From an uncultured delta proteobacterium (GTDB lineage Bacteria > Desulfobacterota > Desulfomonilia > Desulfomonilales > Desulfomonilaceae): a DNA stretch of 64,000 bases. Positions 1-20,345 of the stretch are shown here, piece by piece. The stretch spans positions 544,001-608,000 of the forward strand of contig CAWBKB010000003.1 of NCBI GenBank assembly GCA_963789265.1, given 5' to 3'. Both the position numbers and the translations under genes were made by a program. The notes below the pieces were generated by a model. That model did not search any database. It had not been told where the DNA came from and saw only the letters and a list, made by a program, of their open reading frames with translations. Numbering within the stretch: position 1 is the first letter of the stretch; each line of letters opens with the position of its first letter.

Positions 1-525
1 TCTCTCTTGAATCTGGATTCCGCTGCCGTATTTGTGGTACCGCTCCATCTGTTTGAGCAAATCGTCCTGAAAGCTCTGAACACCCACTGAAAGCCTGTTT
101 ACTCCTCCATCTTTTAGTATTGTCACAATTTCGTCGGTCAAATGATTCGGGTTGGTCTCGAGAGAAATCTCTTTGATGCTGAATTTCTTCCGTAGTTCCT
201 CAAGGAGGCCGCCGACCTCCCGAGGCAACACGGTGGGGGTTCCTCCTCCGACATACACAGACGAAAAATCGAAACCGATCTCATGGTACATTTCGATTTC
301 TCTAAGAAGGGCATTGAAATATTTGCGAGCCAAATCCTTATCCAGGGGGAAGCGATTAAACGAGCAGTACGGGCACAGTTCCTCGCAGAAGGGTACGTGC
401 ACGTAGAGAAGGTACTTGGTATCCTTCCTTGGGCGAGGAGGCCGGATGCGCTCAAAATCGGTCAGACGCAAGACATTCGCATACTGCCGTTTCAGGTAGG
501 TGGTGAGTAGACCTTCTACGATCAT
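1..525 (-). CDS. HemN/HemW-like radical SAM protein (coproporphyrinogen III oxidase family); 5' part only, runs off the window
   Basis: Manual translation from ATG 525 gives LYVHVPFCEELCPYCSF (CxxxCxxC), YVGGGTPT, ETNP and NRLSVGVQSF. Not in the ORF track because no stop lies inside the window. Confidence 0.85.
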   Translation of the reverse strand, partial: MIVEGLLTTYLKRQYANVLRLTDFERIRPPRPRKDTKYLLYVHVPFCEELCPYCSFNRFPLDKDLARKYFNALLREIEMYHEIGFDFSSVYVGGGTPTVLPREVGGLLEELRKKFSIKEISLETNPNHLTDEIVTILKDGGVNRLSVGVQSFQDDLLKQMERYHKYGSGIQIQER

Positions 526-672
526 ATTAGAGGCGCTCCCTCTATTGCCTTCACGCTGGTTTGGTTTGATTTAACATAGATAAAATGTAACATTTTGCCA
601 TACGAAGCAACCATTCGGTGACTTGATACCCTGAAGCACACCATACCAATCTTGGCCGCCACCGGCAAACAG

Positions 673-1395
673 TCATCGCAAGAATCGGCCCCGGTCATCA
701 TACCAGACGGAAGCTCTATAAACCGGCTTTTGGGGAAAGATCCACAGCAACAGAATCCCTAGCACAAATCCTCCCATATGGGCCCAATAGGCCACGCCTC
801 CCGCCTGGTGGTGCGCTGTCAATTGGGAAGTCCCGCTAAGAAATTGAAAAGCGAACCATACAATCAAGAAGAGGAACGCGGGAAACTCGACGATTTTGAT
901 AAAGATGAAGATAATTAGGAGCGTGGTCACCCGGGCGTTGGGGTAGCTCACGAGATAAGCCCCCAAAACACCCGAGATTGCACCACTTGCCCCCACCATG
1001 GGCAATCTTGAGCCGGCGCTGAATGTGACCTGGGCCAGGCCGGCCCCGATTCCGCACAGCAAGTAGAACAGCAGGAACGTGAAGTGACCGAGGCGCTCTT
1101 CGACATTGTCTCCGAAAATCCAGAGAAACCACATATTGCCGATAATATGGAGCCATCCGCCGTGTATGAATAGCGAAGCGACCATAGGTACAACAGCGTT
1201 GTCGAGGAATCCGCCCTTAAATCTGTAGAATTCCATAAAACGCAAGGGGATGAGGCCGTATTCCACAATAAATCGGTCGAGGCGTTCCCCCCCCAACGAG
1301 ACCTCGTAAAACCAGACAAAGGCGTTTATGGCAATTATCGCAATGGTGACAAGAGGCAACGTTCGGGAAGGAATGCTGTCTCGCAGCGGAATCAT
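673..1395 (-). CDS. Rhomboid family intramembrane serine protease
   Basis: HGGWLHIIGNM, GASG catalytic Ser and AHMGG catalytic His motifs; multiple TM segments. Confidence 0.95.
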   Translation of the reverse strand: MIPLRDSIPSRTLPLVTIAIIAINAFVWFYEVSLGGERLDRFIVEYGLIPLRFMEFYRFKGGFLDNAVVPMVASLFIHGGWLHIIGNMWFLWIFGDNVEERLGHFTFLLFYLLCGIGAGLAQVTFSAGSRLPMVGASGAISGVLGAYLVSYPNARVTTLLIIFIFIKIVEFPAFLFLIVWFAFQFLSGTSQLTAHHQAGGVAYWAHMGGFVLGILLLWIFPQKPVYRASVWYDDRGRFLR

Positions 1396-1639
1396 AGAAT
1401 GGCTCCTCTAGCGTAGGCCAATTAGTGCATACGGGCGCTACGTTCGGCCGCCATGCCTCATATCGCCCTCAGCCAATTTCAATTTCCTCTCTGGGGATCC
1501 TTATTGATAGAAGATATACAATCTTGTCTAAATTAACGTGTCTCAATTCTTGCACAGTGGTTTCGCGAACCAAAGCCATTTTTGTCAAGAAGACACTTCC
1601 CAAAAAGCAATTTGTCCGAAGCGAACAATTCCCAAAATT

Positions 1640-2510
1640 CTAATGTCTCTTCATCTTGAGCGGAGCCAGAGCAAGTATTGGAGCTATAATCTCATCGAAT
1701 GCCGAAGACGTTGGCGACGTCGGATACTCAAGGACAAAAGGGGTTCCCTCATCCGATGCGGCAACAAGTCGAGGGTCTATGGGAATCCTGCCCAAGAAAC
1801 GGAAGCCCGTCTCTCGTGCCAGTTTCTCTCCCCCGCCACTTTTGAAAAGGTCGTGTTTCGCGCCGCATTCAGGGCAGACGAAGCCGCTCATATTTTCTAC
1901 GATTCCGAATATCGGCATCTCGAGGCTTCTGCAAAACCGAATCGACTTCCTTACATCCTTCAGGGCTACCTTCTGTGGAGTCGTCACGATTATGGCTTGC
2001 GAACGCGGAGGAGCCATCTGACATATAGAAAGAGGCTCGTCGCCGGTTCCGGGCGGAGCATCCACAATGAGAAAATCAAGCTGCCCCCAGTCGACTTCTG
2101 CTATGAACTGCTTTATCATCTGGTGCTTCATCGGGCCACGCCAGATAACGGCCTCCTGGGCCTGATCTTTAACCACGAATTCGATGGACATTACCTTGAG
2201 GTGATCGTTGTACCGGACAGGGAGAAGACCCCTGACCGACCCTTGGGACGCCGATGCGCCTTCAAGCTTCAAAAGAGTAGGAATGCTCGGACCGTGAATA
2301 TCAATGTCCAGCAGCCCGACTTCCCGGTCCGCGGCTGCAAGGGCCGCGGCAAGATTTACCGCGACAGTGCTTTTCCCTACACCACCTTTGCCGGATAAAA
2401 TCATCAAGGTATTTTCGATGCGGGTAAGGCTGTCCGCGAGCATAAGGTCTTCACGAAGTTCCTGAATCTCTTCTTTGGAACGTGGGGGGGGTACTTCTTC
2501 GATCTGTCAT
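1640..2510 (-). CDS. mrp: Mrp/NBP35 (ApbC) Fe-S cluster carrier ATPase
   Basis: SGKGGVGKST, DIDIHGPS, VIWRGP, DAPPGTGD, ENMS..CPEC. The likely start at 2510 is 1 nt out of frame across a G8 run (2484-2491); the in-frame ORF starts at 2443. Confidence 0.93.
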
Positions 2511-2687
2511 TTGCGAGTCCATTTCCAGTTTTTTTGCTGATACTTATTTGAGAGTGACCCGCTGTGGCGGATATTTATCTTCTCGACCTGGGTGCCACGG
2601 ATCTGGGCCTTGGCAGATCCGTGCCGGATTTAGCCAGTGCCCATCGTCGGATCGCAAATTGGTATCGCATATGCGGCTGTTGTTGCT

Positions 2688-3581
2688 TCAGGCTATGTCT
2701 ATGCCTTCCAGCAGCTTTCTCGACTTGATGCGGTGCACATCGAGACCGACCTCTTTCGAGGTGAAGCCCATAGCCAACCCTAACAATTGGGTAAGATAAA
2801 AGGTCGGTATCTTCCGCTTTTCCTTGTTCTTGCGCGCCAACACGATTTGCCCCATGTCGAACTGCTCAAAACAAGACGGGCAGACAACCGAAAGCGCTTG
2901 TATCCCCCGTTCTCGAATGTACGAGAGTTTTTGGCTCGTGATGGCATAACCCGCGTCCTGATCCATGTTCGCACTCAGTGGCGACCCGCAACAGAGGAAT
3001 TTCCGGGAATATTCCATCGGTTCCACGCCAATGATGGAGAGGAGATGGTCCATCTTCACAGGAACGTATGATTCTGCCTCTGAAAGCTCCTCGGGATACA
3101 TCACCTTGGGGGGACGGAAATAATGGCAACCATAATGACATCCAACACGCAGCGGTACTTCCCGTACCTTCTCCTTGACGATCTTTTCCACCACAGTGTC
3201 CTGGTACAGAACGTCCAGTATGTGTGTTACCTGCACCGTACCTTTGAAGTGATGACCGTGTTCATCCAGGATCTTGTTTACTTTGCGTCTCTTGGCATCA
3301 CTTTGTTTCAGGACGTGATTGGCCTCTTTCAGAGTGTTTACGCATCCCGAACACAGAGTGAGCAGGTCCAACCCGGCTTCTTCAGCCAGGCAAAGATTGC
3401 GAGCTGCAAGGGCCAGCCACGAATCGTAATGCACCATCTTCATGCTCGTGGGGGGCGGGCAGCAGGAAAAAGGAAGATCCACCAGGTCTATGGCGAGACG
3501 TTCGCACACCAGGCGCGTCGCCGCTTCAAAGCCGGGATATTTTATCGGAATTGCGCATCCGAGAAAGAGAGCATACTTCAT
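2688..3581 (-). CDS. hdrB: Heterodisulfide reductase subunit B
   Basis: FLGC..P N-terminus, two CCG-type domains (CCPPP..CSGC; HYGCH..CCGSP..CPSC), QFD.GQ, QLLGLAMG. Confidence 0.93.
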   Translation of the reverse strand: MKYALFLGCAIPIKYPGFEAATRLVCERLAIDLVDLPFSCCPPPTSMKMVHYDSWLALAARNLCLAEEAGLDLLTLCSGCVNTLKEANHVLKQSDAKRRKVNKILDEHGHHFKGTVQVTHILDVLYQDTVVEKIVKEKVREVPLRVGCHYGCHYFRPPKVMYPEELSEAESYVPVKMDHLLSIIGVEPMEYSRKFLCCGSPLSANMDQDAGYAITSQKLSYIRERGIQALSVVCPSCFEQFDMGQIVLARKNKEKRKIPTFYLTQLLGLAMGFTSKEVGLDVHRIKSRKLLEGIDIA

Positions 3582-3620
3582 GGCAACCTTTTCATGGTAC
3601 TCAGTAGGGTCTACGGTAGG

Positions 3621-4085
3621 TCAAATCTCCAGCACCTCGGTCAGTCCCGTCTTAGCGAGGATTTCACGTACCTCGTCCACAGGCGCCGGCGGAAGTGGAA
3701 CCAGGCCGTGGTGGGCCCTCATCTCGTCAAGCTGGTGAACGATCATGGAGCGACCTGTCTTAGCCAACAGTTCTATGGCCATTCTGAGCCTGTCTGGGAT
3801 ATTTCCGCGCCGCGCTGCTGAATTACGCAGAGCGACTAGAAGATCGGAAATAGGGATCTTCTGAGGACAGCGATCCTCGCATACGCTGCAGGTGCAGCAG
3901 AGCCACAACCTTTCGTCTTCTACGACTTTGTCGTGGCCCAGATTGAGGCATTTCAGGATAGTCTCTCGAGGACCGAACGCGGGCGCCACCTCCCTTGCAG
4001 GGCAAGAGCCGGTGCAACGAGCGCATTGATAGCATTCGTACAAATCTTCTCTGGGGAAATGCTTCCAGATTTTGATGGCGGTCAT
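3621..4085 (-). CDS. hdrC: Heterodisulfide reductase subunit C
   Basis: CYQCARCTGSCP and WLCCTCSVCEDRCP 4Fe-4S motifs; ATG 4085 overlaps the hdrA stop (ATGA). Confidence 0.92.
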   Translation of the reverse strand: MTAIKIWKHFPREDLYECYQCARCTGSCPAREVAPAFGPRETILKCLNLGHDKVVEDERLWLCCTCSVCEDRCPQKIPISDLLVALRNSAARRGNIPDRLRMAIELLAKTGRSMIVHQLDEMRAHHGLVPLPPAPVDEVREILAKTGLTEVLEI

Positions 4086-6533
4086 GTCATATCGCTCTTC
4101 TTGGTCAGGGATTGTGCGAAACTCTCGGCATCGTCCCGGATCTGCTTGGGCGTCAACTTTCTCAGCGCCGTTTCCATCTCCTGAATTACCCGTGCGAACT
4201 GCGCCCCTTCTGCCGCGGAAACCCACGCAAGCCGGAGGCGATCCTTGTTGGCACCGAGCTTTTCCATACGCTTCCAGAAGCGATCAACCCGTGAAACTGT
4301 GTGCTGGTTGGCATTGTTGTAATGGCAATCCGAGGGATGGCAGCCGGACACCAGAACCGCTCCTGCCCCTTTGATGAAAGCCCTCTCGATCCATCGAGGT
4401 GAGACTCGAGCCGAGCACATCGTGCGGATGATACGGACGTTCGAGGGGTATTGTATCCGCGAGACTCCGGCAAAGTCCGCACCGGCGTAAGAGCACCAAT
4501 TGCAGGCGAAGGCTACTATTTTGTTATGCGGATCTCGCTCGAGTGCAGTGTCTATCTGACCCACGATCTGGCTCTCGGTAAAATGTGTCTGGTCGATCGC
4601 GCCAAACCTGCATTCCGGCACGCAGGCGCCGCACCCCTGGCATGCAGCCTCTACAACGCGATAGTATCCCTGTTCCTTGCTTCCTTCGATCGCGTGATAC
4701 GGACAAACTCTTGCGCAAAGGCCGCAAGCCGTGCAGGCGTCGGGATTGATCCTGGCGGTGATGGCCGGGACCTTCACCTCGCCTTTGCTCATGAGGATGT
4801 TAGCTCGGGACGCAGCGGCAGACGCTTGCGTGACCGAGTCTTTGATGTCCTTGGGGCCTTCAGCCGCGCCCGCGAGAAATACACCGCCGGTGGTGGTGTC
4901 AACCGGTCTTAGCTTGGGATGGGCCTCCATGTAGAAGCCATCTGTGTCCGTGGTGAGGTTCAAGAGGCGCTGGAGGACTTCCGAACCGCTGCGCGGCCTT
5001 ATCCCGACGGAAAGGATCACCATGTCCATCATATACCGATAATGAGATCCAAGGAGGGTGTTCTCCCCCAGCAGAGTAAGGTCCCCGGTATTGATGTCCT
5101 CGATGATTTCACCGGGAATTCCGCGAATGAACGTCACACCTTCGCGGCGAGCCCTCTGAAAAAGATCCTCGAAGCCCTTTCCAAACGCTCGAATGTCAAT
5201 GTAGAAAACGTAAATCTCGGTGTCAGGCCAGTGCTCTCTAATGAGAAGAGCATCTTTGATGGTGTTCATACAGCAGACATTGCTACAGTACGGATTGCTA
5301 CGCTTGCTGCGCGAGCCTATGCATTGGAGAAAAGCTACCTTCTTTGGCCGTCGGCGATCGGAAGGCCGGATCAATTCACCAGATGACGGCCCGCCTGCGT
5401 TTATCAGACGCTCGAACTCCAGCGTGGTGATAACGTTGGGGAATTTGCCGTATCCAAGTTCGGTCAGAGAAGTGGGATCGTAAACGTCCACCCCTGTGGC
5501 CACGACGATGGTGCCGACTTCTATTTCAATGATTTCGTCTCTGTCGGCAAAGTCTATACACTGGTGAGAGCAAGCCTGAAAGCACCTGTCGCATGCCACA
5601 ATTCCGTGGCTGTTCAGGCAATGGTTCATGTCTATAAGGAAGCTGGATGGTACCGCCTGAGCAAAAGGGATGTGAATTGCATGTCGAATCGAAAGACCCG
5701 CGTTGAACTCATCAGGGGCCAATTGCGGGCAGACCTGGATACAGTCTCCGCAGGCAGTGCATTCTTTCTTTACGTAACGGGCCTTCTTAAGAATCTTGAC
5801 CTTGAAATTGCCGATGTGGCCTTCTACACCGGCAACCTCGGACAGAGTCATCAGTTCTATGTTCGAATGGCGGCCCACTTCGCTCATCTTGGGGGCGAGT
5901 ATGCAGATAGAAACAGTCCATGGTAGGGAAAGTCTTGTCTATTTGAGCCATCCTGCCGCCGATGCTTCCGCTCCTCTCTACCAGATAGACCTGATATCCC
6001 GCGTCGGCCATATCCAATGAAGCCTGGATACCCGCGACGCCCCCGCCGATCACCATTGCCTTGCGAGTCACGGGCACAGTCAATTCGAATTGCGGGCTCA
6101 ACTTGGCAGCCTTGGTGACAGCCATTTCCACAAGATCCTTGGCTTTTTCAGTGGCGGCCTCTTTGTCATGAAGATGCACCCAGGAACAATGCTCACGTAT
6201 GTTGGCCATTTCAAGAAGGTAGGGATTGAGACCTGCGCTCTCGCACGCAGCCCGAAAGGTCGGCTCGTGAAGTCTCGGCGTGCACGAGGCCACGACCACC
6301 CTGTTCAGCTTGTGCTCCCTTATGTCCGCTTTGATCTGCTCCTGCCCGGGCTCAGAGCAGGTGTAAAGAGAATCCTTTGCGAGTACAACCCCGGCCAGAT
6401 CTTTAGCATATTCGGCTACTACCTCGCAGTTGACCGTGCCGCCGATGTTTTTTCCGCAATGGCAAACATAAACACCGATCCTCAGATCGTCGGAACTTAA
6501 TCCTTTGTCTGATGCTTCAGTTATATCTTTCAA
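4082..6533 (-). CDS. hdrA: Heterodisulfide reductase subunit A with C-terminal MvhD fusion (one apparent +1 frameshift near 5910)
   Basis: GVYVCHCG.NI, SCTPRLHE, NIREHCSWVH, GGGVAG, DKTFPTMDC[SICILAPKM], CSNVCC, EAHPKLRPV and ferredoxin repeats, then MvhD motifs CNWCSYAGAD, MCSARV, GCHPSDCHY, WVSAAEG. Confidence 0.93.
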
Positions 6534-7132
6534 TTGGACCGTTTCCTCCGGGAAGCCACCAGGCTTTGTGTCTTTGCACCGGCCTGATTTATCAGCCCTT
6601 GGCCGTACTCAAAGCCTTTGTCAAAAGCGGAAGTATTCAGATCTTCTGTGCCGGGCGGGATCGAAGCCAGAACGGACTCTTTCATGGATTCGTAAGTCAC
6701 CACTCCGCCCAGAGCTGCTACCGCGCCGAGCATAACGATGTTCGCTACAATGGTCCTTCCCAATTGCTCGGCAATTCGGGTACAGGGAACTCTGTAAATG
6801 GTTATGCCCTTTGGTTCCTCATCCAACAAGACAAGGTCTTCATCTAAAATCAGCGTCCCACCGGGACGGATAGAACCACCGTAGGTTTCCCAAGCTCCCT
6901 GACTCATCAGGACCAGTACGACCGGCTGTTCTACCTTAGGGTAATGGATTGCTCCATCCGATATCACAACGTCCGCGCTGCAAGATCCTCCGCGAGCTTC
7001 CGGACCGTAACTTTGAGTGAAGACCGCATTTTTTTCCTCGAAGAGCGCCGCGGCCTTACCCAGGATGTGCCCTGAGAGTATGATCCCTTGTCCGCCGAAC
7101 CCAGCCAGTCTTATTTCCTGTTTCGCGGTCAT
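6530..7132 (-). CDS. korC: 2-oxoacid:ferredoxin oxidoreductase gamma subunit
   Basis: GFGGQGII, QSYGPEARGG, NIVMLGA. Confidence 0.93.
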   Translation of the reverse strand: MTAKQEIRLAGFGGQGIILSGHILGKAAALFEEKNAVFTQSYGPEARGGSCSADVVISDGAIHYPKVEQPVVLVLMSQGAWETYGGSIRPGGTLILDEDLVLLDEEPKGITIYRVPCTRIAEQLGRTIVANIVMLGAVAALGGVVTYESMKESVLASIPPGTEDLNTSAFDKGFEYGQGLINQAGAKTQSLVASRRKRSN

Positions 7133-8052
7133 GCGGCTCTGCCCTTCTCCTTGCTTTTCCCTTTAGCCTTTACCCTGGCCACGACCTTGTTCTTATAATT
7201 CTCCGCAAAATCAGGTCGTTCCGTATCGATGAATGTTCCTACCAGGATCTTTTCCTTCAGGCGGATCTCGGCTCCACTGAGATCCGCTCCATTGCAGACC
7301 TCCGACATCTCCCGGTAATACCGCATCTCGTCGAGTCCGGAACCGAGCTTGTTTGGCCTCCCGTACCCGGTGGGACACGGTGCGATGGCCTCGATAAAGG
7401 TTAACCCTCTCTTGTCAAAGGTTTGGCTTATCGAATGAACGAGTTGTCTCGGATGGTACGTAGTCCACCGTGCTACGTAGATTGCTCCGGCCGCGTGGGC
7501 AAGATAAGGCAAATTGAAGCCGGGTTCGGCGTTTCCAGTAGGGGTAGTAGAGGTTCTCGCCTCGAGGGGAGTAGTAGGCGCAACCTGACCGCCTGTCATA
7601 CCGAAATTGAAGTTATTTACGCACAGGACTTTCAGATTGATATTGCGTCGGGCCGCATGGATCAGATGATTACCGCCGATCGCGAAGAGATCGCCATCTC
7701 CCGAAAAAACGGTCACATGGAGATCCGGCTTTGCCAGAGCTAAGCCGGTGGCAAAAGGTATGGCCCGACCATGTGTGGTATGGTACGTATCCATGTCAAG
7801 GTACCCGGCCACTCTGCCCGTACAACCGATGCCGGACACTACCGCACATTGATCCACGGGAATACCTTTGCGCCTGATGGCTTCGATAAAACAGGTCAGC
7901 ACGACTCCAAGGCCGCATCCGGGACACCAGATATGCGGGATCCTGCCCGGTTTTAAATACTTGTCGTCAGGGTGAAGGCCGTGTTCTCTCTGAATGGCCT
8001 CGTCCTCAGCCGCTTTGTCAAACGGTTGCAGCTCTCTGAGACGTATTTTCAT
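7129..8052 (-). CDS. korB: 2-oxoacid:ferredoxin oxidoreductase beta subunit (TPP-binding)
   Basis: WCPGCG, SGIGC, HTTHGRA, GDGD..IGGNH, NN.FGMTGGQ..PTT, CPT. Confidence 0.95.
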   Translation of the reverse strand: MKIRLRELQPFDKAAEDEAIQREHGLHPDDKYLKPGRIPHIWCPGCGLGVVLTCFIEAIRRKGIPVDQCAVVSGIGCTGRVAGYLDMDTYHTTHGRAIPFATGLALAKPDLHVTVFSGDGDLFAIGGNHLIHAARRNINLKVLCVNNFNFGMTGGQVAPTTPLEARTSTTPTGNAEPGFNLPYLAHAAGAIYVARWTTYHPRQLVHSISQTFDKRGLTFIEAIAPCPTGYGRPNKLGSGLDEMRYYREMSEVCNGADLSGAEIRLKEKILVGTFIDTERPDFAENYKNKVVARVKAKGKSKEKGRAA

Positions 8053-8091
8053 GGGGTCTCCAGGAAAACTGTAGTTAAACGGTAAAATTTA

Positions 8092-9240
8092 TTACAAGTA
8101 CTCGCCCGCAGCGTCGGCAATCTCCCGAGGCGTATGAATAGATCCGCCCATAAGGGCCATCAAAACTACTTCCGCGTTCCCTCCGGCGCTACGGTCCACT
8201 TCATAGGCCATTTGGCCGTAATTGATTTCCGGGACTATGAACGCTCTCACTCTCTCCGCAAGTTCCCGAATGAGTTTGGACGGGAAAGGCCACACCGTAA
8301 TGAGCCGCACCAGACCCACTTTGTGGCCTCGCGATCTCAAATCCTCAACAGCCTGGCGCGCAACCCTGGCTGTGCACCCATAAGCCACCACGACCACCTG
8401 CGCGTCATCCAGCCCGATTAATTCAACCTGAATGATCTTTTGCGCGTTCTTGCGAATCTTGTCTACGATATGACGAATGTTTCGTTCCTGGACCGTATCA
8501 GTTATCACAGGGTATCCACGTTCGTCATGAGTAAGGCCCGTGACGTGAACATGGTATCCTTGGCCTGCCACGGCCATCGGAGCCGGCAGCGGCCCCGAGC
8601 TGTCAAAGGGCAGATAATCCGCCGGTCTTTGTACGGGCTTTGGCCGCTCTACCACCTGAAGATCTTCCCGTCGGGGTATGACCACCTTTTCGGTCATGTG
8701 TCCAATTACTTCGTCTGCCATGACAAAGACTGGTTGTCTATAAATCTCCGCGAGGTTGAACGCCTGCACAGTAAGATCAAAGCAATCCTGGGGAGATGCC
8801 GGGGCAAGAGCAATGCATCCGTAATCTCCGTGGGCCCCCCATCTTGCTTGCATGATATCTGCCTGACCGACAAGTGTGGGCAGACCGGTGGAAGGCCCTC
8901 CGCGCTGAACATTGACCACCACGCAGGGGGTTTCGGTCATCATTCCCAGGCCTATATTCTCCATCATAAGAGAAAATCCCGGTCCCGATGTGGAAGTCAT
9001 AGACTTCATTCCACCCCACGAGGCGCCCAGAATCGCAGCCATCGAACCCATCTCATCTTCCATTTGTATGTAGACCCCACCTACCTCAGGTAGTCGGCGG
9101 GCCATGCGTTCGGCTATCTCGGTGGCTGGAGTAATGGGATATCCTGCAAAGAATCGGCATCCTGCGGCCAGGCCCCCTTCGGCGCATGCCGCGTCTCCGT
9201 GGAGAAAATGCTCACCTGTGAGGAGGTCTTTGTCATCCAT
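8092..9240 (-). CDS. korA: 2-oxoacid:ferredoxin oxidoreductase alpha subunit
   Basis: FFAGYPITPATE, QMEDE, TSGPGFSLMME, QRGGPSTGLPT. Confidence 0.95.
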   Translation of the reverse strand: MDDKDLLTGEHFLHGDAACAEGGLAAGCRFFAGYPITPATEIAERMARRLPEVGGVYIQMEDEMGSMAAILGASWGGMKSMTSTSGPGFSLMMENIGLGMMTETPCVVVNVQRGGPSTGLPTLVGQADIMQARWGAHGDYGCIALAPASPQDCFDLTVQAFNLAEIYRQPVFVMADEVIGHMTEKVVIPRREDLQVVERPKPVQRPADYLPFDSSGPLPAPMAVAGQGYHVHVTGLTHDERGYPVITDTVQERNIRHIVDKIRKNAQKIIQVELIGLDDAQVVVVAYGCTARVARQAVEDLRSRGHKVGLVRLITVWPFPSKLIRELAERVRAFIVPEINYGQMAYEVDRSAGGNAEVVLMALMGGSIHTPREIADAAGEYL

Positions 9241-9456
9241 GTATTAATCCTAGTGTTTCAGGGCCCAGCAGAAGTGAGGAAATTCATCGAACCGCGAACA
9301 GTCCTCCAGTGGGCCGCTCATGTCTTTACCGATCGGCTCCGGCACACTTCTGCTTCTGTCAGAAAGAGAACAGTCACAGCCCCGCGCGGTGATCAGTTAT
9401 TCGGCCTGCGCAAAGCGGGATAAGCTTGCGAAGGTGAATGAAAGCGAGGTGAACAG

Positions 9457-9795
9457 CTATCGCTTAACGTATCTTCTATCCTTCCGGGAGTATCTTGTGG
9501 TGACTCTTTGTATGTCATCTTCCGTGATCTTCTTGGCGTCCTTCAGTTCGGTCCAGATCGCGAATTCAGGACAGATGAGGCTACATAGTCCACATTCCAC
9601 ACAATCTTCAGCCTGGAAGATCAATTCCGGCGGGTGGTATCCCTTTGTGTTAAAGCCTTTGCTCTGCTTTAAACACTCGTTGGGGCAGAATTCGATGCAA
9701 AACCCGCAGCCTTTGCACCGATTCTGTATAATATGAACCCTGCCGTGAGGTATCGAATGGGCCTCAGCGTCCAACGGCAGCCGCCAGAACTTCAT
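9457..9795 (-). CDS. korD: 2-oxoacid:ferredoxin oxidoreductase delta subunit (2x4Fe-4S ferredoxin)
   Basis: CKGCGFCIEFCP and CVECGLCSLICPEFAI; N.KGYHPP; upstream of korA. Confidence 0.9.
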   Translation of the reverse strand: MKFWRLPLDAEAHSIPHGRVHIIQNRCKGCGFCIEFCPNECLKQSKGFNTKGYHPPELIFQAEDCVECGLCSLICPEFAIWTELKDAKKITEDDIQRVTTRYSRKDRRYVKR

Positions 9796-9984
9796 AGTTT
9801 ATCTCCACGGATAGGAATACGTGACTTTTCAGTATAGTCGATTTCGCTCAAGAGTCAATCTCCGGCCCAGCCGCGGCCCGAAGCAGGAAACTTCCAGTTC
9901 CGATCACAGGCCGGCGTTCTTCCGACCGTCCAAATATTATATTTGAATACGCGATCCCTGTTAGGTTAGGATGCTGCGATAATC

Positions 9985-10464
9985 TTGGGAAATTACGTAG
10001 AGCCTCAGAGGAGACGAGATTTGATTCGCTGGACAGCCATCTGCATAATCAGCACCGCTGTCTTCGCATGGGGAGCCGGCTCGGCCCGCTCCGTGACATG
10101 CGAAGAATGTCAAGACCTTGACAAGAACAAGGCCGTTGCTCAGCAGCAGTTGACAGAAAAAGAGAAGGCGCTGGAAACCGAGTTCAAGAAAAAGGCTTTT
10201 CAGAAGGTCACAGAAATAAGAAGTGACATCACCAACTTGAGAAAAAAACTCATGGAGTTGGAGGACAAGGGTAAAGGCTGCCAGGATGCTTGCAAGCCGG
10301 ATGTGATAAAGAAACTGGAGTGTCACAAGCTCAGAAGCAAAATCAATGCCTTGGAAACCGCAACTTCCGGCCGTGAAGCGGACACGAAGAAAGTGGATGA
10401 ACTTTACAGGGATCTTCGCCGGTGCAACAAGAATCTGCGAGAGTTAAAAAGCGGGCAGAAGTGA
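9985..10464 (+). CDS. Hypothetical exported coiled-coil protein with paired cysteines
   Basis: Signal-peptide-like N-terminus, CEEC and CQDAC, K/E-rich heptads. Confidence 0.7.
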   Translation: MGNYVEPQRRRDLIRWTAICIISTAVFAWGAGSARSVTCEECQDLDKNKAVAQQQLTEKEKALETEFKKKAFQKVTEIRSDITNLRKKLMELEDKGKGCQDACKPDVIKKLECHKLRSKINALETATSGREADTKKVDELYRDLRRCNKNLRELKSGQK

Positions 10465-10524
10465 TTCGCTCAGTACCAGAATTTCATAATTACGGTACCA
10501 ACTGCACGGTAGCGCCGACGTCCC

Positions 10525-10731
10525 GAAACTGTCTCAAAATTAAACCGTGAATGAAATTCGTAGCACGATGCTCCCTTTTCCCGGCAATGAATTGCCGGGC
10601 TACTATCTGCCGTCCCTACGGGACGCTTGCATTTAAGCCCCATCGGGGCGATAGAAAGTAGCCTGGTGCTTCAGCGCCAGGCTGCCATCGTGCCACGATT
10701 CCGAGCATCAAAATAGTTTTGAGACACTTTC
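10525..10731. mobile_element. MITE family 1, copy A (IS1182/IS5-like ends)
   Basis: 15-bp TIR GAAACTGTCTCAAAA / TTTTGAGACACTTTC (1 mismatch), TCCC direct repeat on both sides, homologous to 26722 and 49685. Confidence 0.8.
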
Positions 10732-10855
10732 TCCCTGCCGGCGTTTGGCGAAAACCGGCACGGAGGCTGGATTCCCACGTGCGCGAGAATGACGGCTACA
10801 TACCGGAATACGTGACCGTATTTATGAAAACGACTACTCAGTTGTCCGCTGTTGA

Positions 10856-11665
10856 TCAGTATTCGGTGTCGTCGGGGGGAACGGCCAGACCGTGACCGGG
10901 AATGAAAGGAATCGGCGCCACCGGATATCCCTGCACCCATCTGATCCCGCAGCGCAGCACGGTTTTGACCGGAGCAGGGTATAGTAATTTGTCCGGATCC
11001 TGCTTCGCGGCCTGCTCCTCCAATATTGAAGGGATTATTCGGATGCAGTGCCCCTTGTCGGGAAGATACGTGTAGAACGGCTTCAGCCCGTCGGGAATGG
11101 GTTCAGGATAGTCCTCTATATCGCGAATCCGGTCGGGGTCACTTTCCGGAACGTCCGGCCGAAATTTGATCATGTCCCACAGATTCTCCTTTGGATAGGA
11201 TTGCGCGCAGAAGCCCCTTACAGCTCGATCAAACTCAATGTCCGTCCAATGGGTAGACTTTTTGATGACGTCGGGAACGGAACCGAAGAACTTTCGGAAG
11301 CCATTTTCTCGGTTGACTGAAAAGGCTTGTGCTTCTTCATTGTAGAAGTGTATCGTTATTTCTTCCTGTTCCGACATGCGGCGAAAGTGGTCCAATCCTC
11401 CGCGGGCATAATAATTCCACCAGATGTCGAAAAGCTCTTCCTCATCGCCGTCTATTCTGAGCATGGTGAGCACGAGGAATACGTCGTCAAACTTGATGAG
11501 ACCGGCACGCTGCCCGATTTCCAGGTCCCCGTTTCGTCGTATGAGCCCGGATGATGAACGTATGAAAAAGCCTACCTCGCCGGGATTGTTCGGACGCGGC
11601 GTAAACATGGCCTCGATGCTCTGGCCTGGAACCAGGCGAATCTTATTCGGATTGACAAAGTCCAT
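10856..11665 (-). CDS. Hypothetical protein
   Basis: 269-aa ORF with GGAG RBS and globular composition; no motif recognised. Confidence 0.75.
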   Translation of the reverse strand: MDFVNPNKIRLVPGQSIEAMFTPRPNNPGEVGFFIRSSSGLIRRNGDLEIGQRAGLIKFDDVFLVLTMLRIDGDEEELFDIWWNYYARGGLDHFRRMSEQEEITIHFYNEEAQAFSVNRENGFRKFFGSVPDVIKKSTHWTDIEFDRAVRGFCAQSYPKENLWDMIKFRPDVPESDPDRIRDIEDYPEPIPDGLKPFYTYLPDKGHCIRIIPSILEEQAAKQDPDKLLYPAPVKTVLRCGIRWVQGYPVAPIPFIPGHGLAVPPDDTEY

Positions 11666-11972
11666 AATCCACTCCTTCAGATTCCGTTCTACCAGAAAGC
11701 TGAAAAGTCATCCAGTTCATTTTCGCCTTGTATCGGGGGCCGTCGAACTCCAGAAAACTCATCTTAACTTCTGCTCGTAGTTTGCGTACATTAAGAAATG
11801 GAGCTTCGGCAAAAAGTTCCACTGTTCTGACAACTTTTTCGGGAGCCTGTGCAAGGCCCGAACGATCAGCTCGATTTTGCCACCCCGACTTGGGAATGGC
11901 TAAAGCCCAGTGAAAGACCTTGACCATAAGCCTCAGAATTGATAATTAAATCCAAGGCAAAGGAGAAGAATC

Positions 11973-12155
11973 ATGGATAGCGGACATACTATATGCGTAA
12001 CGTGTGCGTGGAGGCAGACATGCAACAAAAAATTCTCCATGGACGGCTCCACAACAACACGGTGTCCCGATTATACACGGGATGTTTCCCTGAAGCCTCC
12101 ATCCTCACAGGAAGAAACAAAGAAGCGAGAGGAGAAGGAGCCACAACCGGAGTAG
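11973..12155 (+). CDS. Small Cys-rich protein upstream of argS
   Basis: AAGGAG RBS; CVTCAWRQTC.KKFS...CPDYTRD (4 Cys). Confidence 0.75.
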   Translation: MDSGHTICVTCAWRQTCNKKFSMDGSTTTRCPDYTRDVSLKPPSSQEETKKREEKEPQPE

Positions 12156-12250
12156 CGAACGTGATAAGATACGCGCCCTTATTTAGGGAAAATTGCATTA
12201 AATTACGATATCATGCCATGATAGTTAAAAATAGTTGAGGTAGGCTCTTA

Positions 12251-13921
12251 ATGAAAGAAGTCATACGGACCCTGGTCCGAAAGGCTATAGCCAAAGCAGA
12301 TAAGCAAAATGGAGTATCTCTGCCGAATGCGGGAGCCATAAATGTGGAAGTCTCACGTAGCAAGGATCCTCGTTTTGGCGATTACGCCACCAATGCCGCG
12401 CTTGTGCTGGCAAATGCAGCGGGTCTTAAGCCTCGCGAGTTGGCCGCGACGATCAAGGACAATTTGACAAAGGACTCTGAGGTTCTGGCAGGATGCGAGA
12501 TAGCCGGACCCGGCTTCATGAATTTCTTTCTCGCTCCTAATGTATGGCATCAGGTTCTCCATACTATTCACAGGGAGAAGGAGCGATATGGGTGCGCCGT
12601 AGAGCTGGACGGACCTCGAGTGCTGCTCGAATTTGTCAGCGCGAACCCCACGGGGCCTCTCCATGTAGGACACGGCAGAGGAGCCGCAGTCGGCGACACT
12701 TTGGCTCGACTTCTCAAAACTTGCGGGTATAAGCTGGAAACTGAATACTACGTTAATGATTCGGGTAACCAGATGAAGATCCTGGGGAAGTCCTTGCTGG
12801 TCCGCTACAGAGAATTGTTGGGGGAAGAGATCGAGTTTCCCGAGAATCATTATCGAGGAGATTACATACGAGAGATGGCCGCACAGCTCCTCGAGACTTC
12901 CCTAGGCAAGAGGCTGCTGGAAGTTCCGGAAAATGAGGCGATAGATCTTGCGGCACAATATGCATGCGAGCGTATACTACGGGGTATCAAGGACGATCTT
13001 AGCCTTTTCGGAGTCAGGTACGATCGATATTTCAGCGAAAAGGATCTGCATCAGAGCGGGGCTATCGCGGCCACACTGGACGAACTTCGCCGACGAGGGA
13101 GAGTGGAAGAGCATGAAGGCGCCATTTGGTTCGGTATGGACGAAAACCAGGACGAAAAGGACAGAGTCCTGGTCAGAGCCACCGGCGAGCCCACCTATTT
13201 CGCGGCGGATGCCGCTTATCATCAGAACAAACTGGGCAGAGGTTTCGACCTTTTGGTCGATATATGGGGATCGGATCACCACGGATATGTGCCCAGGGTT
13301 CGCGCTGCAATCGAGGCCCTTGGTTACCCGCCTGATGTGCTGAAAGTGCTCTTGGTTCAGTTTGTGAATCTCGTTCGAGAAGGCCAAAAAATCTCGATGT
13401 CAACACGCTCCGCGGAATTCATAACCTTGCGGGAGGTTTTGGAAGAGGTAGGACCAGATGCGGCCCGTTTCTTCTTCTTAACCAAGCGCTGCGATAGCCA
13501 CCTTGACTTCGACCTGGACCTGGCCAAGAAGCAAACTCGTGACAACCCGGTTTACTACGTCCAGTACGTTCATGCGCGTGTGGCCAGTATTTTCCGAATT
13601 GCCCAGGAAAGGAACATAGACGCGGAAATGACCGACCCCGATCTTACCGCGCTATCGCTGCCGGAAGAGCAGAAAATAATGAAACATCTCGCCGACTTCC
13701 CCGATACGCTCTCCGAAGCAGCCGAAGCATTGGAACCTCATAGAATAACGTTCTATCTCATGGAACTGGCGGAGCTCTTTCACCCCTACTACCATGACAA
13801 CAGAGTGTTGACAGAGGATACACGACTGAAAAAGGCCCGGCTCTACCTTGTGGAGGCTGTCCGCCAAGTGGTGGCCAACGGCCTGAGCATCCTCGGGGTG
13901 TCCGCTCCGGATCGGATGTGA
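12251..13921 (+). CDS. argS: Arginine--tRNA ligase
   Basis: FGDYATN, EFVSANPTGPLHVGHGR, MSTRS, NPVYYVQYVHAR, APDRM C-terminus. Confidence 0.98.
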   Translation: MKEVIRTLVRKAIAKADKQNGVSLPNAGAINVEVSRSKDPRFGDYATNAALVLANAAGLKPRELAATIKDNLTKDSEVLAGCEIAGPGFMNFFLAPNVWHQVLHTIHREKERYGCAVELDGPRVLLEFVSANPTGPLHVGHGRGAAVGDTLARLLKTCGYKLETEYYVNDSGNQMKILGKSLLVRYRELLGEEIEFPENHYRGDYIREMAAQLLETSLGKRLLEVPENEAIDLAAQYACERILRGIKDDLSLFGVRYDRYFSEKDLHQSGAIAATLDELRRRGRVEEHEGAIWFGMDENQDEKDRVLVRATGEPTYFAADAAYHQNKLGRGFDLLVDIWGSDHHGYVPRVRAAIEALGYPPDVLKVLLVQFVNLVREGQKISMSTRSAEFITLREVLEEVGPDAARFFFLTKRCDSHLDFDLDLAKKQTRDNPVYYVQYVHARVASIFRIAQERNIDAEMTDPDLTALSLPEEQKIMKHLADFPDTLSEAAEALEPHRITFYLMELAELFHPYYHDNRVLTEDTRLKKARLYLVEAVRQVVANGLSILGVSAPDRM

Positions 13922-15012: not shown

Positions 15013-17532
15013 TTGGCAGTGCTTCACGAGAAGACCACCGTCGGAATAGAAGAGGAAATCCAGAAATCTTATCTGGACTATGCCATGAGTGTGATCATAG
15101 GCCGGGCTCTACCCGATTTGCGGGATGGCTTGAAGCCGGTTCACCGCAGGATCCTCTATGCCATGCACAGGAGCGGCAACGTTTGGAATAGGGCTTACCG
15201 CAAAGCCGCTCGAGTCGTCGGCGACGTCATCGGTCAATATCATCCCCACGGCGATACTGCTGTTTACGACTCGGTCGTGCGAATGGCTCAGCCATTTTCC
15301 ATGCGTTATCCCTTCATCGACGGGCAAGGGAACTTCGGCAGTGTGGACGGCGACGCGCCGGCAGCTATGCGGTACACGGAAGTTCGCATGGATCGCATCT
15401 GCCAGTCGGCTCTCGAGGACCTGGACAAACAAACCGTGGATTTCATCGCCAATTATGACAACACTCTTGAAGAGCCTGTTGTCTTGCCGGCTAGATTTCC
15501 GATCCTTCTAGTAAACGGCTCGCAAGGAATAGCTGTCGGAATGGCCACGAACATACCGCCCCATAACCTGGGAGAGACAATCGACGCGACAATATTCCTG
15601 GTAAGAAATCCGGACGCGTCCATCGCTGACCTCATGCGGTTTATGCCCGGGCCTGATTTCCCGACCGCGGGATTCATATACGGAAAACAGGGAATCCTGG
15701 ACGCTTACACCACAGGGCGCGGATCGGTGCGTATGAGGGCCAGAGCCGAAGTGGAAGACGCTGAGAGGGGCTACCAGCGGATTGTCGTCACTGAAATCCC
15801 TTACATGGTGAACAAGGCCAGGATGGTTGAAAACGTTGCAGAGCTCGTTAAAGACAAGAAGATTCCCGGTATTCGAGATCTGAGGGACGAGTCAGACCGG
15901 CACGGCATGCGAGTGGTCTTTGAGCTGAAGAGGGACGAGAACCCGGATGTGGTTCTCAACCAGCTTTTCAGGCACACACAGCTTCAATCCACCTTCGGAA
16001 TCCAACTCCTCGCTGTGGACAACCAACGGCCAAAGCAGATGAACGTCAAAGAAATTCTGCAACGGTTCATCGACTTCCGCAAAGAGGTGGTAATCCGCAG
16101 GACACGGTTCGAGATTGCGCGCGCTCGCGAGAGAGCCCACATTCTCGATGGCCTGAAAATTGCGCTGGATAATCTGGATGAGGTGATCGCGCTCATCAAG
16201 GCAGCAGAGAACCCTGCTGTTGCCCGGCAAGATCTGATGGACACATTCCAACTCAGTCAGGTGCAGGCTCAAGCAATTTTGGACATGCGACTTCAGCGGC
16301 TGACGGGCTTGGAAAGGGATAAGATCCTCCAGGAACTCAAGGAAGTACTGGCCAAAATCGCGGAACTTGAAGGCATACTCGCTTCGGAACAGAAGATCCT
16401 GGACATCATTATCGCGGAACTCGAAGAGGTGAAAGCACAGCACGGAGACTCACGGCGTACGCAAATTCTGGACGCGCAAACGGACATGCTGGATGAAGAT
16501 CTTATCCCTCGAGGAGACATGGTAGTGACGTTTTCCAGCAAGGGCTATGTCAAAAGGGTTCCTGCGAATCTTTACAAGAGCCAGCGACCCGGCGGAAAAG
16601 GGAGAATCGGCACCAAAGTCGGGACGGAAGATGTAGTCAACCAGATGCTATACGCGTCCTCCCATGACGTGCTCCTGTGCTTCTCCAATCGCGGACGCAT
16701 TTATTGGATCAGGGTGTTTGAAATCCCGGAAGAGGGACCTTATGCCAAGGGCAGGGCAATAATCAACCTGTTGCGCCTCGACCCGAGCGAAAAAATCAGA
16801 AAGATCCTCCCCCTTCAGGAACTGAGCACCGAAGGGTACGTGGTGATGGTTTCGGCCAAGGGCAAAATCAAGAAAACGGCCATAGGAGAATTTTCAAGGC
16901 CAAGACCATCGGGGCTAATCGCTCTGACCATCGACCCCGATGATGAACTCATAGGTGTGAACTTTACCGCAGGTGACAACGATATTCTCCTAGCTACTGC
17001 CAAAGGCAAGGCAATCAGATTTCATGAAAGTCAAGTGCGGCCGATGGGGCGGCAAGCCCGCGGCGTTACGGGCATCCGGATGAAGGCCGACGACGCGGTT
17101 ATCGGCATGGAGGTAATTTCTAACGGGAACGGCACGCTTCTCACGATAACCTATAGCGGGCACGGAAAACGAACCGCTCTAGCGGAATACCCTGTGAAGC
17201 ATCGCGGCGGCCAGGGTGTAATCACAATCAAGAATACCACCAGGATAGGGGACGTTGTCGGGATTCAGATGGTTGAGGACACAGACCATCTGCTGATAGT
17301 GACCTCGGGCGGTAGGATCATCAGGCTGAGAATGGAGGAGATTTCCGTTATAGGACGCAACACGATGGGCCGGACTCTGGTTCGGATGGAACCCGGTGAA
17401 TACGTGGTGGACGTGGCCAGGGCCGAGACCTCGGAGGATGAAGACAAAGATTCCGATGCGGTTGAGCCCCAAGTCGGCTCAGAAAGCGAGGCGACTCTGT
17501 CGGACCATGACGAAGGAGACAACGGAGATTGA
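15013..17532 (+). CDS. gyrA: DNA gyrase subunit A
   Basis: SYLDYAMSVI, DGLKPVHRR, YHPHGD, AAMRYTE, GyrA-box-like QRPGGKG, C-terminal beta-pinwheel repeats. Confidence 0.97.
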   Translation: MAVLHEKTTVGIEEEIQKSYLDYAMSVIIGRALPDLRDGLKPVHRRILYAMHRSGNVWNRAYRKAARVVGDVIGQYHPHGDTAVYDSVVRMAQPFSMRYPFIDGQGNFGSVDGDAPAAMRYTEVRMDRICQSALEDLDKQTVDFIANYDNTLEEPVVLPARFPILLVNGSQGIAVGMATNIPPHNLGETIDATIFLVRNPDASIADLMRFMPGPDFPTAGFIYGKQGILDAYTTGRGSVRMRARAEVEDAERGYQRIVVTEIPYMVNKARMVENVAELVKDKKIPGIRDLRDESDRHGMRVVFELKRDENPDVVLNQLFRHTQLQSTFGIQLLAVDNQRPKQMNVKEILQRFIDFRKEVVIRRTRFEIARARERAHILDGLKIALDNLDEVIALIKAAENPAVARQDLMDTFQLSQVQAQAILDMRLQRLTGLERDKILQELKEVLAKIAELEGILASEQKILDIIIAELEEVKAQHGDSRRTQILDAQTDMLDEDLIPRGDMVVTFSSKGYVKRVPANLYKSQRPGGKGRIGTKVGTEDVVNQMLYASSHDVLLCFSNRGRIYWIRVFEIPEEGPYAKGRAIINLLRLDPSEKIRKILPLQELSTEGYVVMVSAKGKIKKTAIGEFSRPRPSGLIALTIDPDDELIGVNFTAGDNDILLATAKGKAIRFHESQVRPMGRQARGVTGIRMKADDAVIGMEVISNGNGTLLTITYSGHGKRTALAEYPVKHRGGQGVITIKNTTRIGDVVGIQMVEDTDHLLIVTSGGRIIRLRMEEISVIGRNTMGRTLVRMEPGEYVVDVARAETSEDEDKDSDAVEPQVGSESEATLSDHDEGDNGD

Positions 17533-17944
17533 TCCGGGGTGGCGACTCCTGGAACACACGGCGGATGTCCGCATGGCCGTTTATGGGGCTACTCTGAAGG
17601 AGCTTTTCCTCAACGCGGCCCGAGGATTTACTAGTCTTCTGGTGCCGGAAACTCAGGGGCACCCGCAAACCGAACTTGAGCTGTCTCTGCAAGCCGACGA
17701 CACTGAAGAGCTTCTCGTGGACTGGCTTAGAGAGCTTCTCTTCTATCATCAGACAAGAGGTTTCATTCTTATCTCCGCGGATATTGAAGAGCTTTCCGAC
17801 ACTTCATTGACGGCCAAATTAGCCGGCCGGACACGCGGTCGCGACGAAGAACCGGAAATCGAAATAAAGGGCGTTACCTATCACGCGCTGTCTATCGAGA
17901 AAAACGATGCCGGATATTCCGTCACGATTGTTTTCGACATCTGA
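17507..17944 (+). CDS. Archease (RtcB activator)
   Basis: LEHTADV, LLVDWLRELL, EIKGVTYH and FDI C-terminus. Confidence 0.93.
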   Translation: MTKETTEIDPGWRLLEHTADVRMAVYGATLKELFLNAARGFTSLLVPETQGHPQTELELSLQADDTEELLVDWLRELLFYHQTRGFILISADIEELSDTSLTAKLAGRTRGRDEEPEIEIKGVTYHALSIEKNDAGYSVTIVFDI

Positions 17945-19881: not shown

Positions 19882-20109
19882 CTACCGCCACTTCAAATAA
19901 TCATTCACTGTAAACCCCGCATCTTTGAGGATGCGGACAGCTAAACCCCGACCAATGTCACATCCCGTGTGAACTGGAACGGTCAACGTCACTTCGCTCT
20001 GTTCGTGCTTCAAGGTGAGATGGCTTCTCGACTGACGATCTTCTACAAATCCATGAGCTTCGAGAAATCTTATGAGATGGCGAGCGCTGACTTGCGGCAT
20101 GCGACTCAT
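19882..20109 (-). CDS. hicA: HicA family toxin (mRNA interferase)
   Basis: LEAHGF..RQSRSH, TVPVH, ILKDAG; overlaps the upstream hicB stop. Confidence 0.88.
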   Translation of the reverse strand: MSRMPQVSARHLIRFLEAHGFVEDRQSRSHLTLKHEQSEVTLTVPVHTGCDIGRGLAVRILKDAGFTVNDYLKWR

Positions 20110-20345
20110 TCGGGTACCCCGACTGTGAGTTCTTCAACGTGTACGATGCGATCTTTTTGCGGTATGACTTCATTGTGGGCTCGCAGAGAGTCTATGTCTT
20201 GCGAGATAGCGTCCCGGATGTTGCGTTTGGCCTGCTCAATGGTCTTTCCATTGCTGAAGCAGCCGGGAAGCGTGGGACTATAGGCGAAGTACCCGTCATC
20301 TTCCGGTTCTTTCTCAATTACTATCTCGAAGGAAAAATATTTCAT
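20106..20345 (-). CDS. hicB: HicB family antitoxin (short form)
   Basis: IEKEPEDDGYFAYSPTLPGCFSNGKTIEQAKRNIRDAI. Confidence 0.9.
   Translation of the reverse strand: MKYFSFEIVIEKEPEDDGYFAYSPTLPGCFSNGKTIEQAKRNIRDAISQDIDSLRAHNEVIPQKDRIVHVEELTVGVPE

Follow-up and report, generated by a model that had tools for sequence, protein, structure and literature searches.

We analyzed a 64,000-nt stretch of DNA (hereafter the window) from an uncultured delta proteobacterium of the family Desulfomonilaceae (assembly GCA_963789265.1, contig CAWBKB010000003.1, positions 544,001-608,000). Seven co-directional genes on its minus strand, running from position 9795 down to 2688, are arranged in the order korD-korA-korB-korC-hdrA-hdrC-hdrB, with an MvhD domain fused to HdrA. 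They encode a 2-oxoacid:ferredoxin oxidoreductase (Kor) and the three subunits of a heterodisulfide reductase (Hdr) core. This gene order and its coordinates had been claimed in a sequence-only reading of the stretch, and both were borne out by the open reading frames (ORFs) and by family assignment with Pfam and NCBIfam. The window thus adds one more case, the simplest in form, to a conserved and uncharacterised type of Kor-Hdr operon. The features of the operon are as follows.

9457..9795, minus strand: korD, delta subunit, a 2x[4Fe-4S] ferredoxin of 112 amino acids (aa); Fer4 families (Pfam)
8092..9240, minus strand: korA, alpha subunit, 382 aa; POR_N 238.4 bits, PFOR_II 83.9 bits (Pfam)
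7129..8052, minus strand: korB, beta subunit, binding thiamine pyrophosphate (TPP), 307 aa; TPP_enzyme_C 104 bits (Pfam)
6530..7132, minus strand: korC, gamma subunit, 200 aa; POR 117.7 bits (Pfam)
5913..6533, minus strand: hdrA2 N-part, 207 codons, N-terminal Fe-S domain and start of the flavin adenine dinucleotide (FAD) domain; NF040770 positions 1-190, 325.3 bits
5911..5913, minus strand: one-base insertion in a T run, causing a +1 shift; the minus strand reads TGT-T-TCT
4082..5911, minus strand: hdrA2 C-part, 609 codons and stop; NF040770 positions 191-775, 892.7 bits
3621..4085, minus strand: hdrC, 2x[4Fe-4S] (dicluster) subunit, 154 aa; Fer4_17/8/9 (Pfam)
2688..3581, minus strand: hdrB, disulfide-reducing subunit with two CCG domains, 297 aa; CCG 80 bits in two stretches (Pfam)

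The Kor part has the make-up of a four-subunit 2-oxoacid:ferredoxin oxidoreductase, with a POR_N/PFOR_II alpha subunit, a TPP-binding beta subunit, a POR gamma subunit and a delta subunit with two [4Fe-4S] motifs. KorA passed the NCBIfam model NF006412 for the alpha subunit of 2-oxoacid:acceptor oxidoreductases (567.8 against a cut-off of 411). Its best solved relative was the alpha subunit of the Pyrococcus 2-keto acid:ferredoxin oxidoreductase (1yd7/4wbx, 411.7 bits), and the next matches in the Protein Data Bank (PDB) were a 2-oxoglutarate synthase (8ys5, 273 bits) and a Magnetococcus-type enzyme (6n2n, 235 bits). The score of KorA on the 2-oxoglutarate-specific OorA model was 388 against a cut-off of 579. 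For KorB, KorC and KorD the best matches were 2-oxoglutarate models, all scoring under their cut-offs: PRK09628 (2-oxoglutarate ferredoxin oxidoreductase beta) for KorB (239 bits against 364), PRK08537 for KorC (224.7 against 235; OorC, 90 against 216) and the NCBIfam model OGOR_delta for KorD (57 bits against 125). These matches suggest that the Kor substrate is probably 2-oxoglutarate/succinyl-CoA.

In the Hdr part, the hdrA2 C-part contains the remaining FAD domain, the inserted and C-terminal ferredoxin domains and the fused MvhD, the last detected as a FlpD/MvhD domain at C-part residues 465-586 (Pfam, 159.7 bits). Its PDB matches were HdrA 8rvu_a (509 bits), a solved methanogen subunit to which HdrA aligned along most of its length, and MvhD 9sw2_D (138 bits). 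The two halves of the window's gene scored 325.3 and 892.7 on the HdrA2 model NF040770, a rough sum over the cut-off of 1100, and intact orthologs from three of the related loci described below (L008, L001 and L013) scored 1240.5, 1234.9 and 1235.4. The orthologs were scored in place of a read-through with a four-letter step because the candidate words recur in frame elsewhere in hdrA. HdrC scored 99.5 bits on TIGR03290 (cut-off 160) and HdrB 277.8 on TIGR03288 (cut-off 345); HdrB also matched PDB 5odc_B over residues 1-292 (234 bits).

The seven genes are tightly coupled. All three 4-nt start/stop overlaps claimed earlier, at 7129-7132, 6530-6533 and 4082-4085, were present. Read on the minus strand, the korB/korC overlap is ATGA (7132-7129), the korC/hdrA overlap is TTGA (6533-6530), with GGAGG 9-10 nt before the TTG start, and the hdrA/hdrC overlap is ATGA (4085-4082). 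The other intergenic gaps are 216 nt between korD and korA and 39 nt both between korA and korB and between hdrC and hdrB. korDABC and an HdrA2-type gene lie on one strand within 10 kb. As had been claimed, no hydrogenase, formate dehydrogenase (Fdh) or Flx gene was found in the flanks of the operon; a gene at 1-525, which runs off the end of the window, was left unscanned. No genes for an NADH module (flxABCD) were found within 10 kb on either side in the window.

The conservation of this arrangement was examined in a synteny survey, a check that the sequence-only reading had named. A species-level genome collection was searched with the HdrA C-part; 630 relatives were confirmed and the best 80 loci were kept. 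These were searched with all window proteins by tblastn, and 46 of them extend 9 kb or more upstream of hdrA. korA and korB were located upstream of hdrA2 on the same strand in 42 of the 46 loci. At one locus (L026) korDABC lies 234 bp downstream of hdrA2, and at three (L066, L072 and L078) tblastn found no kor within 10 kb. Judged by the titles of their records, the loci belong to several orders of Thermodesulfobacteriota, Zixibacteria, Neomarinimicrobiota, KSB1, Planctomycetota, Eisenbacteria, WOR-3, Armatimonadetes, Anaerolineae and Thermoplasmata archaea, and cover more than 10 phyla and both domains.

Within the family, an HdrA2 ortholog was found in 55 of 60 other genomes (77-95% identity) and a KorA ortholog in 56 of the 60. 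Of the 55 genomes with HdrA2, 47 have korA 2.1-3.2 kb upstream of hdrA2, sharing its contig and strand. In seven of the 55, all fragmented assemblies, the two genes were on different contigs, and in one no korA was found at the threshold used. Every Desulfomonilaceae-type locus with the needed flank repeated the gene order of the window. The linkage is far above chance, and its conservation supports the earlier claim that Kor and HdrA-MvhD/HdrC/HdrB form a conserved unit with no hydrogenase, Fdh or Flx gene beside it. In the sampled flanks of the relatives (60 ORFs chosen of 147 candidates), neither NADH-module genes nor a common partner were found. Recurring hints in these flanks were citrate synthase and malate dehydrogenase genes (L025), an aminotransferase gene (L031) and GlnD-like genes (L019, L061 and L080). 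One locus (L010:2350-4881) carries a second, divergent kor set, with a KorA 51% identical, directly upstream of the Hdr-linked korD.

Two architectures were observed among the loci. The Desulfomonilaceae form is the minimal korDABC-hdrA2-hdrC-hdrB, in which a classical hdrB adjoins hdrA2 in 12 of the 12 loci with downstream flank. The loci of other phyla have an insert of 3.5-7.6 kb between korC and hdrA2, the content of which was derived from Pfam scans of two loci (L048 and L070) and from tblastn counts. In 45 of 53 loci, a gene for an HdrCB fusion (HdrD-like) is located upstream of hdrA2, at a distance of no more than 1.5 kb. Among the loci of other phyla, 39 of 42 have a separate MvhD beside the HdrA2-fused one, and 24 of 42 have a GltD-like NAD(P)H module (Fer4_20 and Pyr_redox_2), which would be a mid-potential donor there. 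The GltD-like module matches the 'HdrL' type described for Desulfobacterium autotrophicum (PMC2702500).

The two forms also differ at the Cys position of the D-C-S-I-C-I-L motif of HdrA (position 3 of the HdrA C-part), where a TGA codon, for selenocysteine (Sec), was found in 58 of 75 relatives, all among L014-L080. Cys codons were found there in the window's family, in three Thermoplasmata loci and in L018, L024 and L072. The clusters of other phyla can be written as korDABC-(HdrL or double HdrA)-mvhD-hdrD-hdrA2(Sec), and their KorA and HdrA2 are 57-66% and 53-63% identical to those of the window, respectively. They share the KorDABC and HdrA2 clades, the gene order and the strand with the window's family, whereas the latter has no inserts, Cys in place of Sec, and separate hdrC and hdrB genes after hdrA2.

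KorD carries a further conserved feature. Eight Cys residues, W4, R5 and P7 were invariant in 42 of 42 Hdr-linked KorD sequences from many phyla. The N-terminal motif W-R-x-P-L-D, in the region of residues 1-17 (window 9745-9795, minus strand), was not present in two KorD paralogs of the same genome. This motif may be a docking arm.

The sequence-only reading had treated hdrA as a single open frame, and this part of it did not hold, since one extra T splits the gene into two frames. Six close relatives read TG[T/C]-TC[C/G] at the site, and DNA alignment indicated exactly one inserted base. The two halves together cover the HdrA2 profile (1-190 and 191-775) with no residue lost. All 75 relatives covering the site are continuous and read D-C-S-I-[C/U]-I-L in one frame. 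Where family orthologs matched at full length, their open frames measure about 800-930 aa, compared with 618 aa in the window, and the intact hdrA frame of the HdrA2B2C2 subclass is not present in this assembly. Two further window genes are split by one-base homopolymer insertions. Because the 75 relatives are unbroken and insertions of the same type occur in two other window genes, the split is most likely a sequencing or assembly error, and the HdrA2 of the organism is probably intact, with 816 aa. The assembly has 9 contigs, with an estimated completeness of 95.6% and an estimated contamination of 6.1%.

Two other causes of the split were considered and rejected. The frame changes at the insertion, two codons ahead of the Sec/Cys position, where most relatives have Sec and the window has TGC (5903-5905), so selenocysteine was rejected. 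A programmed +1 frameshift was rejected as unlikely, with none of the 75 relatives shifting at the site.

The two other split genes of the window adjoin each other at about 51.5-53.5 kb. One encodes an HGD-D (2-hydroxyacyl-CoA dehydratase-like) protein (53190-53260, minus strand) and reads CCC near 53217-53233, where CC keeps the frame; the other encodes a BcrAD/BadFG-type activase (51500-51590, minus strand), which has one base too many within or next to a run of T near 51530-51560. Elsewhere in the genome, an Iso_dh-family gene (G000:C3:706951-707971) and an HdrA paralog (C1:2240609-2241728) each gave two overlapping matches in different frames, which are probable frameshift errors.

Two features were located next to the operon.

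9831..9858, minus strand: candidate sigma-70-like promoter, TTGACT, 16 nt, TATACT, about 36 nt upstream of korD; 10 of 12 consensus positions (consensus match only)
1640..2443, minus strand: mrp/NBP35-type Fe-S cluster carrier ATPase; ParA/NUBPL 330 bits (Pfam)

The Mrp-type gene had been claimed to follow hdrB, and Pfam and NCBIfam placed it there, after a gap of 244 nt. It scored 375.6 bits on the NCBIfam model MrpORP (cut-off 450) and covers profile positions 2-251 of 365. Among the 12 family loci with flank, mrp was located 1.5-1.7 kb downstream of hdrA2 in nine and 5.7 kb downstream in one, and was not found by tblastn in two. It is a family-level associate outside the core operon. The downstream neighbours are mrp, a rhomboid gene and the gene at 1-525 that leaves the window; those upstream are a gene for a 269-aa protein of no known family, argS, a SPOR-domain gene and gyrA. 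The 269-aa protein (10856-11665, minus strand) gave no Pfam or NCBIfam match; the two closest loci, L007 and L008, hold a counterpart in the same position upstream of korD (82-83% identity).

An Rfam scan of 1-12500 gave no match inside the operon. The intergenic region upstream of the operon's neighbours carries two matches to the Acido-Lenti-1 motif (gathering score 37), one on each strand: 10580-10625 (plus strand, 52.5 bits) and 10636-10681 (minus strand, 42.7 bits). A terminator scan gave weak consensus matches only, all inside coding sequence. Further from the operon, the window carries a HicA/HicB toxin-antitoxin pair (19885-20489, minus strand), and genes for an Archease (17396-17941) and an RtcB RNA ligase (25189-26637) lie 7 kb apart on the plus strand.

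The rest of the genome was examined for possible partners of the operon. The contig also carries HdrL-, MvhD- and HdrD-like genes, at a distance of about 170 kb and not adjoining kor. They belong to a 16-kb cluster (G000:C3:722800-738700) with several HdrA, HdrL (GltD-like), MvhD and HdrD-like genes, some with in-frame TGA, and this cluster resembles the kor/hdrA2 insert of other phyla. Two further Kor-like sets were found away from hdr genes, and three genes of the DsrC family could provide alternative disulfide carriers. CofH, the sole F420 biosynthesis gene searched for, was absent from the 95.6%-complete genome (best match 25.4 bits against a cut-off of 374.1); F420H2, the donor in the HdrA2B2C2 subclass, is therefore unlikely as a donor here. 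Genes for citrate synthase and an Iso_dh-family enzyme were present, so the direction of Kor cannot be inferred from genes of the tricarboxylic acid (TCA) cycle in the genome itself.

We compared the window with characterised and proposed Hdr systems. In Methanosarcina acetivorans, HdrA2B2C2 uses reduced ferredoxin to reduce heterodisulfide, and bifurcates electrons from F420H2 as well (Yan, Wang and Ferry 2017, PMC5296606). The same source describes homologs in bacteria, which might use NADH and DsrC; Kor is not mentioned in the available part of its text. The window resembles this enzyme in the HdrA-MvhD fusion, the match to the HdrA2 model, the two-CCG HdrB and the dicluster HdrC, and in being soluble with no adjacent hydrogenase. 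It differs in forming one operon with korDABC and in that F420 is an unlikely donor. In addition, the CoM-S-S-CoB disulfide cannot be assumed for the window, as its HdrB and HdrC score under the CoB-CoM equivalog cut-offs.

Kor genes among hdr genes have been reported before. In tubeworm symbionts and Thioflavicoccus mobilis, korABCD and tfrAB are interspersed with flxABCD-hdrABC in a cluster of the reductive TCA (rTCA) cycle, and direct electron delivery to 2-oxoglutarate:ferredoxin oxidoreductase (OGOR) for reductive carboxylation was proposed (Rubin-Blum et al. 2019, PMC6315080). A 2026 survey restates this proposal and cites co-expression (PMC13147460). By description, the window shares with that cluster a four-subunit Kor among hdr genes but has neither Flx (the NADH module) nor the thiol:fumarate reductase (Tfr) (PMC6315080). 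FlxABCD-HdrABC of Desulfovibrio vulgaris (Ramos et al. 2015, via PMC6315080 and PMC5296606) is another bacterial HdrABC-type core, for which DsrC is the proposed disulfide; the window differs in having no adjacent flx genes and an MvhD-fused HdrA of the HdrA2 type. In the methanogen Hdr-Vhu/Fdh-Fwd(Fmd) super-assemblies, ferredoxin-type subunits on the HdrA ferredoxin domain wire HdrA to a CO2 reductase (PMC13518236). The window has the same HdrABC core, with HdrA scoring 407-509 bits against the solved chains (PDB 7bkb, 8rvu and 9sw2). It has no polyferredoxin gene and no hydrogenase or Fdh input, and the adjacency of Mvh, Vhu or Fdh with Hdr is not found in it. Its putative CO2-handling partner would be a TPP-dependent 2-oxoacid synthase instead of formylmethanofuran dehydrogenase.

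The gene content, the coupling and the linkage can be read as a single soluble redox unit in which KorDABC and HdrA2-HdrC-HdrB would work together, and Kor would occupy the low-potential branch at the flavin of HdrA. We regard this reading, which builds on family matches and synteny, as about evenly balanced between right and wrong. KorD would put Kor where free ferredoxin or polyferredoxin-linked CO2 reductases sit in the Hdr complexes of methanogens, on the low-potential branch of HdrA, and HdrC and HdrB would carry the high-potential branch to a disulfide, for which DsrC and a small thiol are candidates. Oxidation of a 2-oxoacid (2-oxoglutarate/succinyl-CoA) takes place near -500 mV, approximately the potential of ferredoxin, so that Kor would fit the low-potential side better than that of a mid-potential donor. 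The same placement is suggested by the docking of ferredoxin-type subunits on the HdrA ferredoxin domain in the Hdr-Vhu-Fwd assemblies (PMC13518236). The separate MvhD (39 of 42 loci) and the GltD-like NAD(P)H module (24 of 42) in other phyla would also leave Kor as the low-potential partner.

Electrons could flow through such a unit in two directions. In one, 2-oxoacid oxidation would pay for disulfide reduction; in the other, disulfide reduction together with a mid-potential donor at the fused MvhD would pull electrons to Kor, resulting in reductive carboxylation. In the window's family, the donor module would then act in trans, from outside the operon. Both directions are plausible because HdrA2B2C2 runs both from ferredoxin to heterodisulfide and by F420H2-driven bifurcation (PMC5296606), and reductive carboxylation is a fair reading.

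Several points weigh against the proposed redox unit. A donor module for the MvhD domain is missing from the operon, and hdrA is broken as written in the assembly. The characterised HdrA2B2C2 uses free ferredoxin, so that co-regulation alone could explain the linkage. The flanks vary by lineage and name no pathway, with only scattered links to 2-oxoglutarate or nitrogen metabolism, and with citrate synthase and Iso_dh present, 2-oxoglutarate need not be made by a reductive route. In the NCBIfam comparisons, HdrB and HdrC do not reach the CoB-CoM Hdr cut-offs, nor do Kor beta, gamma and delta reach the 2-oxoglutarate-specific ones, which makes 2-oxoglutarate no more than a probable substrate.

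A more specific form of the proposal makes KorDABC-HdrA2BC the bacterial counterpart of the Hdr-Fwd super-assembly, in which the low-potential electron would go through KorD straight to the 2-oxoacid synthase without free ferredoxin, and disulfide reduction would drive CO2 fixation into 2-oxoglutarate by flavin-based bifurcation. Docking would take place through the invariant N-terminal arm of KorD (W-R-x-P-L-D), and the mid-potential donor would act in trans, for example from the HdrL-MvhD-HdrD genes about 170 kb away. We put this forward tentatively, as a possible but rather doubtful reading. Kor and Hdr may instead be two separate enzymes under a shared promoter, with Kor reducing free ferredoxin and HdrA2BC oxidising it, co-regulated and not forming a complex. 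The use of soluble ferredoxin by the characterised HdrA2B2C2 agrees with such an arrangement (PMC5296606), as do the spacing between korC and hdrA2, which runs from an overlap to 7.6 kb across lineages, and the translational coupling, which is not universal (a gap of 66-604 nt in several family loci). However, a linkage kept in 42 of 46 loci over more than 10 phyla and both domains exceeds what is usual for the mere sharing of a cofactor pool. The Hdr-linked KorD also has its own invariant N-terminal motif, and the two other Kor-like sets of the genome do not adjoin hdr genes. We therefore consider two separate enzymes unlikely.

Kor could also be the electron-input module itself, as the sequence-only reading had proposed: KorD would dock on MvhD, and electrons from the 2-oxoacid would pass through the HdrA flavin to both disulfide and ferredoxin by bifurcation. 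MvhD is the adaptor to the input modules in the solved Mvh- and Fdh-Hdr complexes that the window's proteins match in the PDB, and the operon contains no other input module. A donor at about -500 mV, however, needs no bifurcation to reduce a disulfide, and we know of no acceptor of still lower potential. The frequent MvhD and GltD-like genes of the other phyla likewise point to a different donor. The ferredoxin-dependent heterodisulfide reductase activity of HdrA2B2C2 is a precedent for low-potential flow to a disulfide (PMC5296606), but on balance Kor as the input module appears distinctly improbable. If the hdrA frameshift is real, the Hdr part would be a recent pseudogene in a decaying operon, with a programmed +1 shift as a remote variant. 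The extra T is present in the assembly, but both halves of hdrA are otherwise intact and 92-95% identical to orthologs of the same genus, at least two other genes in the 64 kb carry a homopolymer +1 insertion of the same type, and the count of 0 of 75 shifted relatives speaks against the variant as well. A decaying operon is thus very unlikely.

The idea of electron delivery between Kor and Hdr is partly in print, the nearest account being the kor-tfr-flx-hdr proposal for tubeworm symbionts (PMC6315080). No description of korDABC-hdrA2-hdrCB without Flx or Tfr was found in a literature search that left out Pereira et al. 2011 and the review of Appel et al. 2021, which may mention such linkages, and no biochemical work on a Kor-Hdr unit was found in the literature. 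Where anaerobes find electrons of low enough potential to run 2-oxoacid synthases in reverse is a question still to be settled, for rTCA-type as well as anaplerotic CO2 fixation (PMC10052474). If the proposed redox unit exists, a Kor wired to the Hdr bifurcation core would answer this question directly. The known partners of HdrABC enzymes are hydrogenase, formate dehydrogenase, the Flx module and F420H2, and Kor would then be a new partner class. The pairing is spread over many uncultured phyla, and the family of the window holds its simplest, seven-gene form. Because this family also includes cultivable Desulfomonile strains, the hypothesis is testable at the bench.

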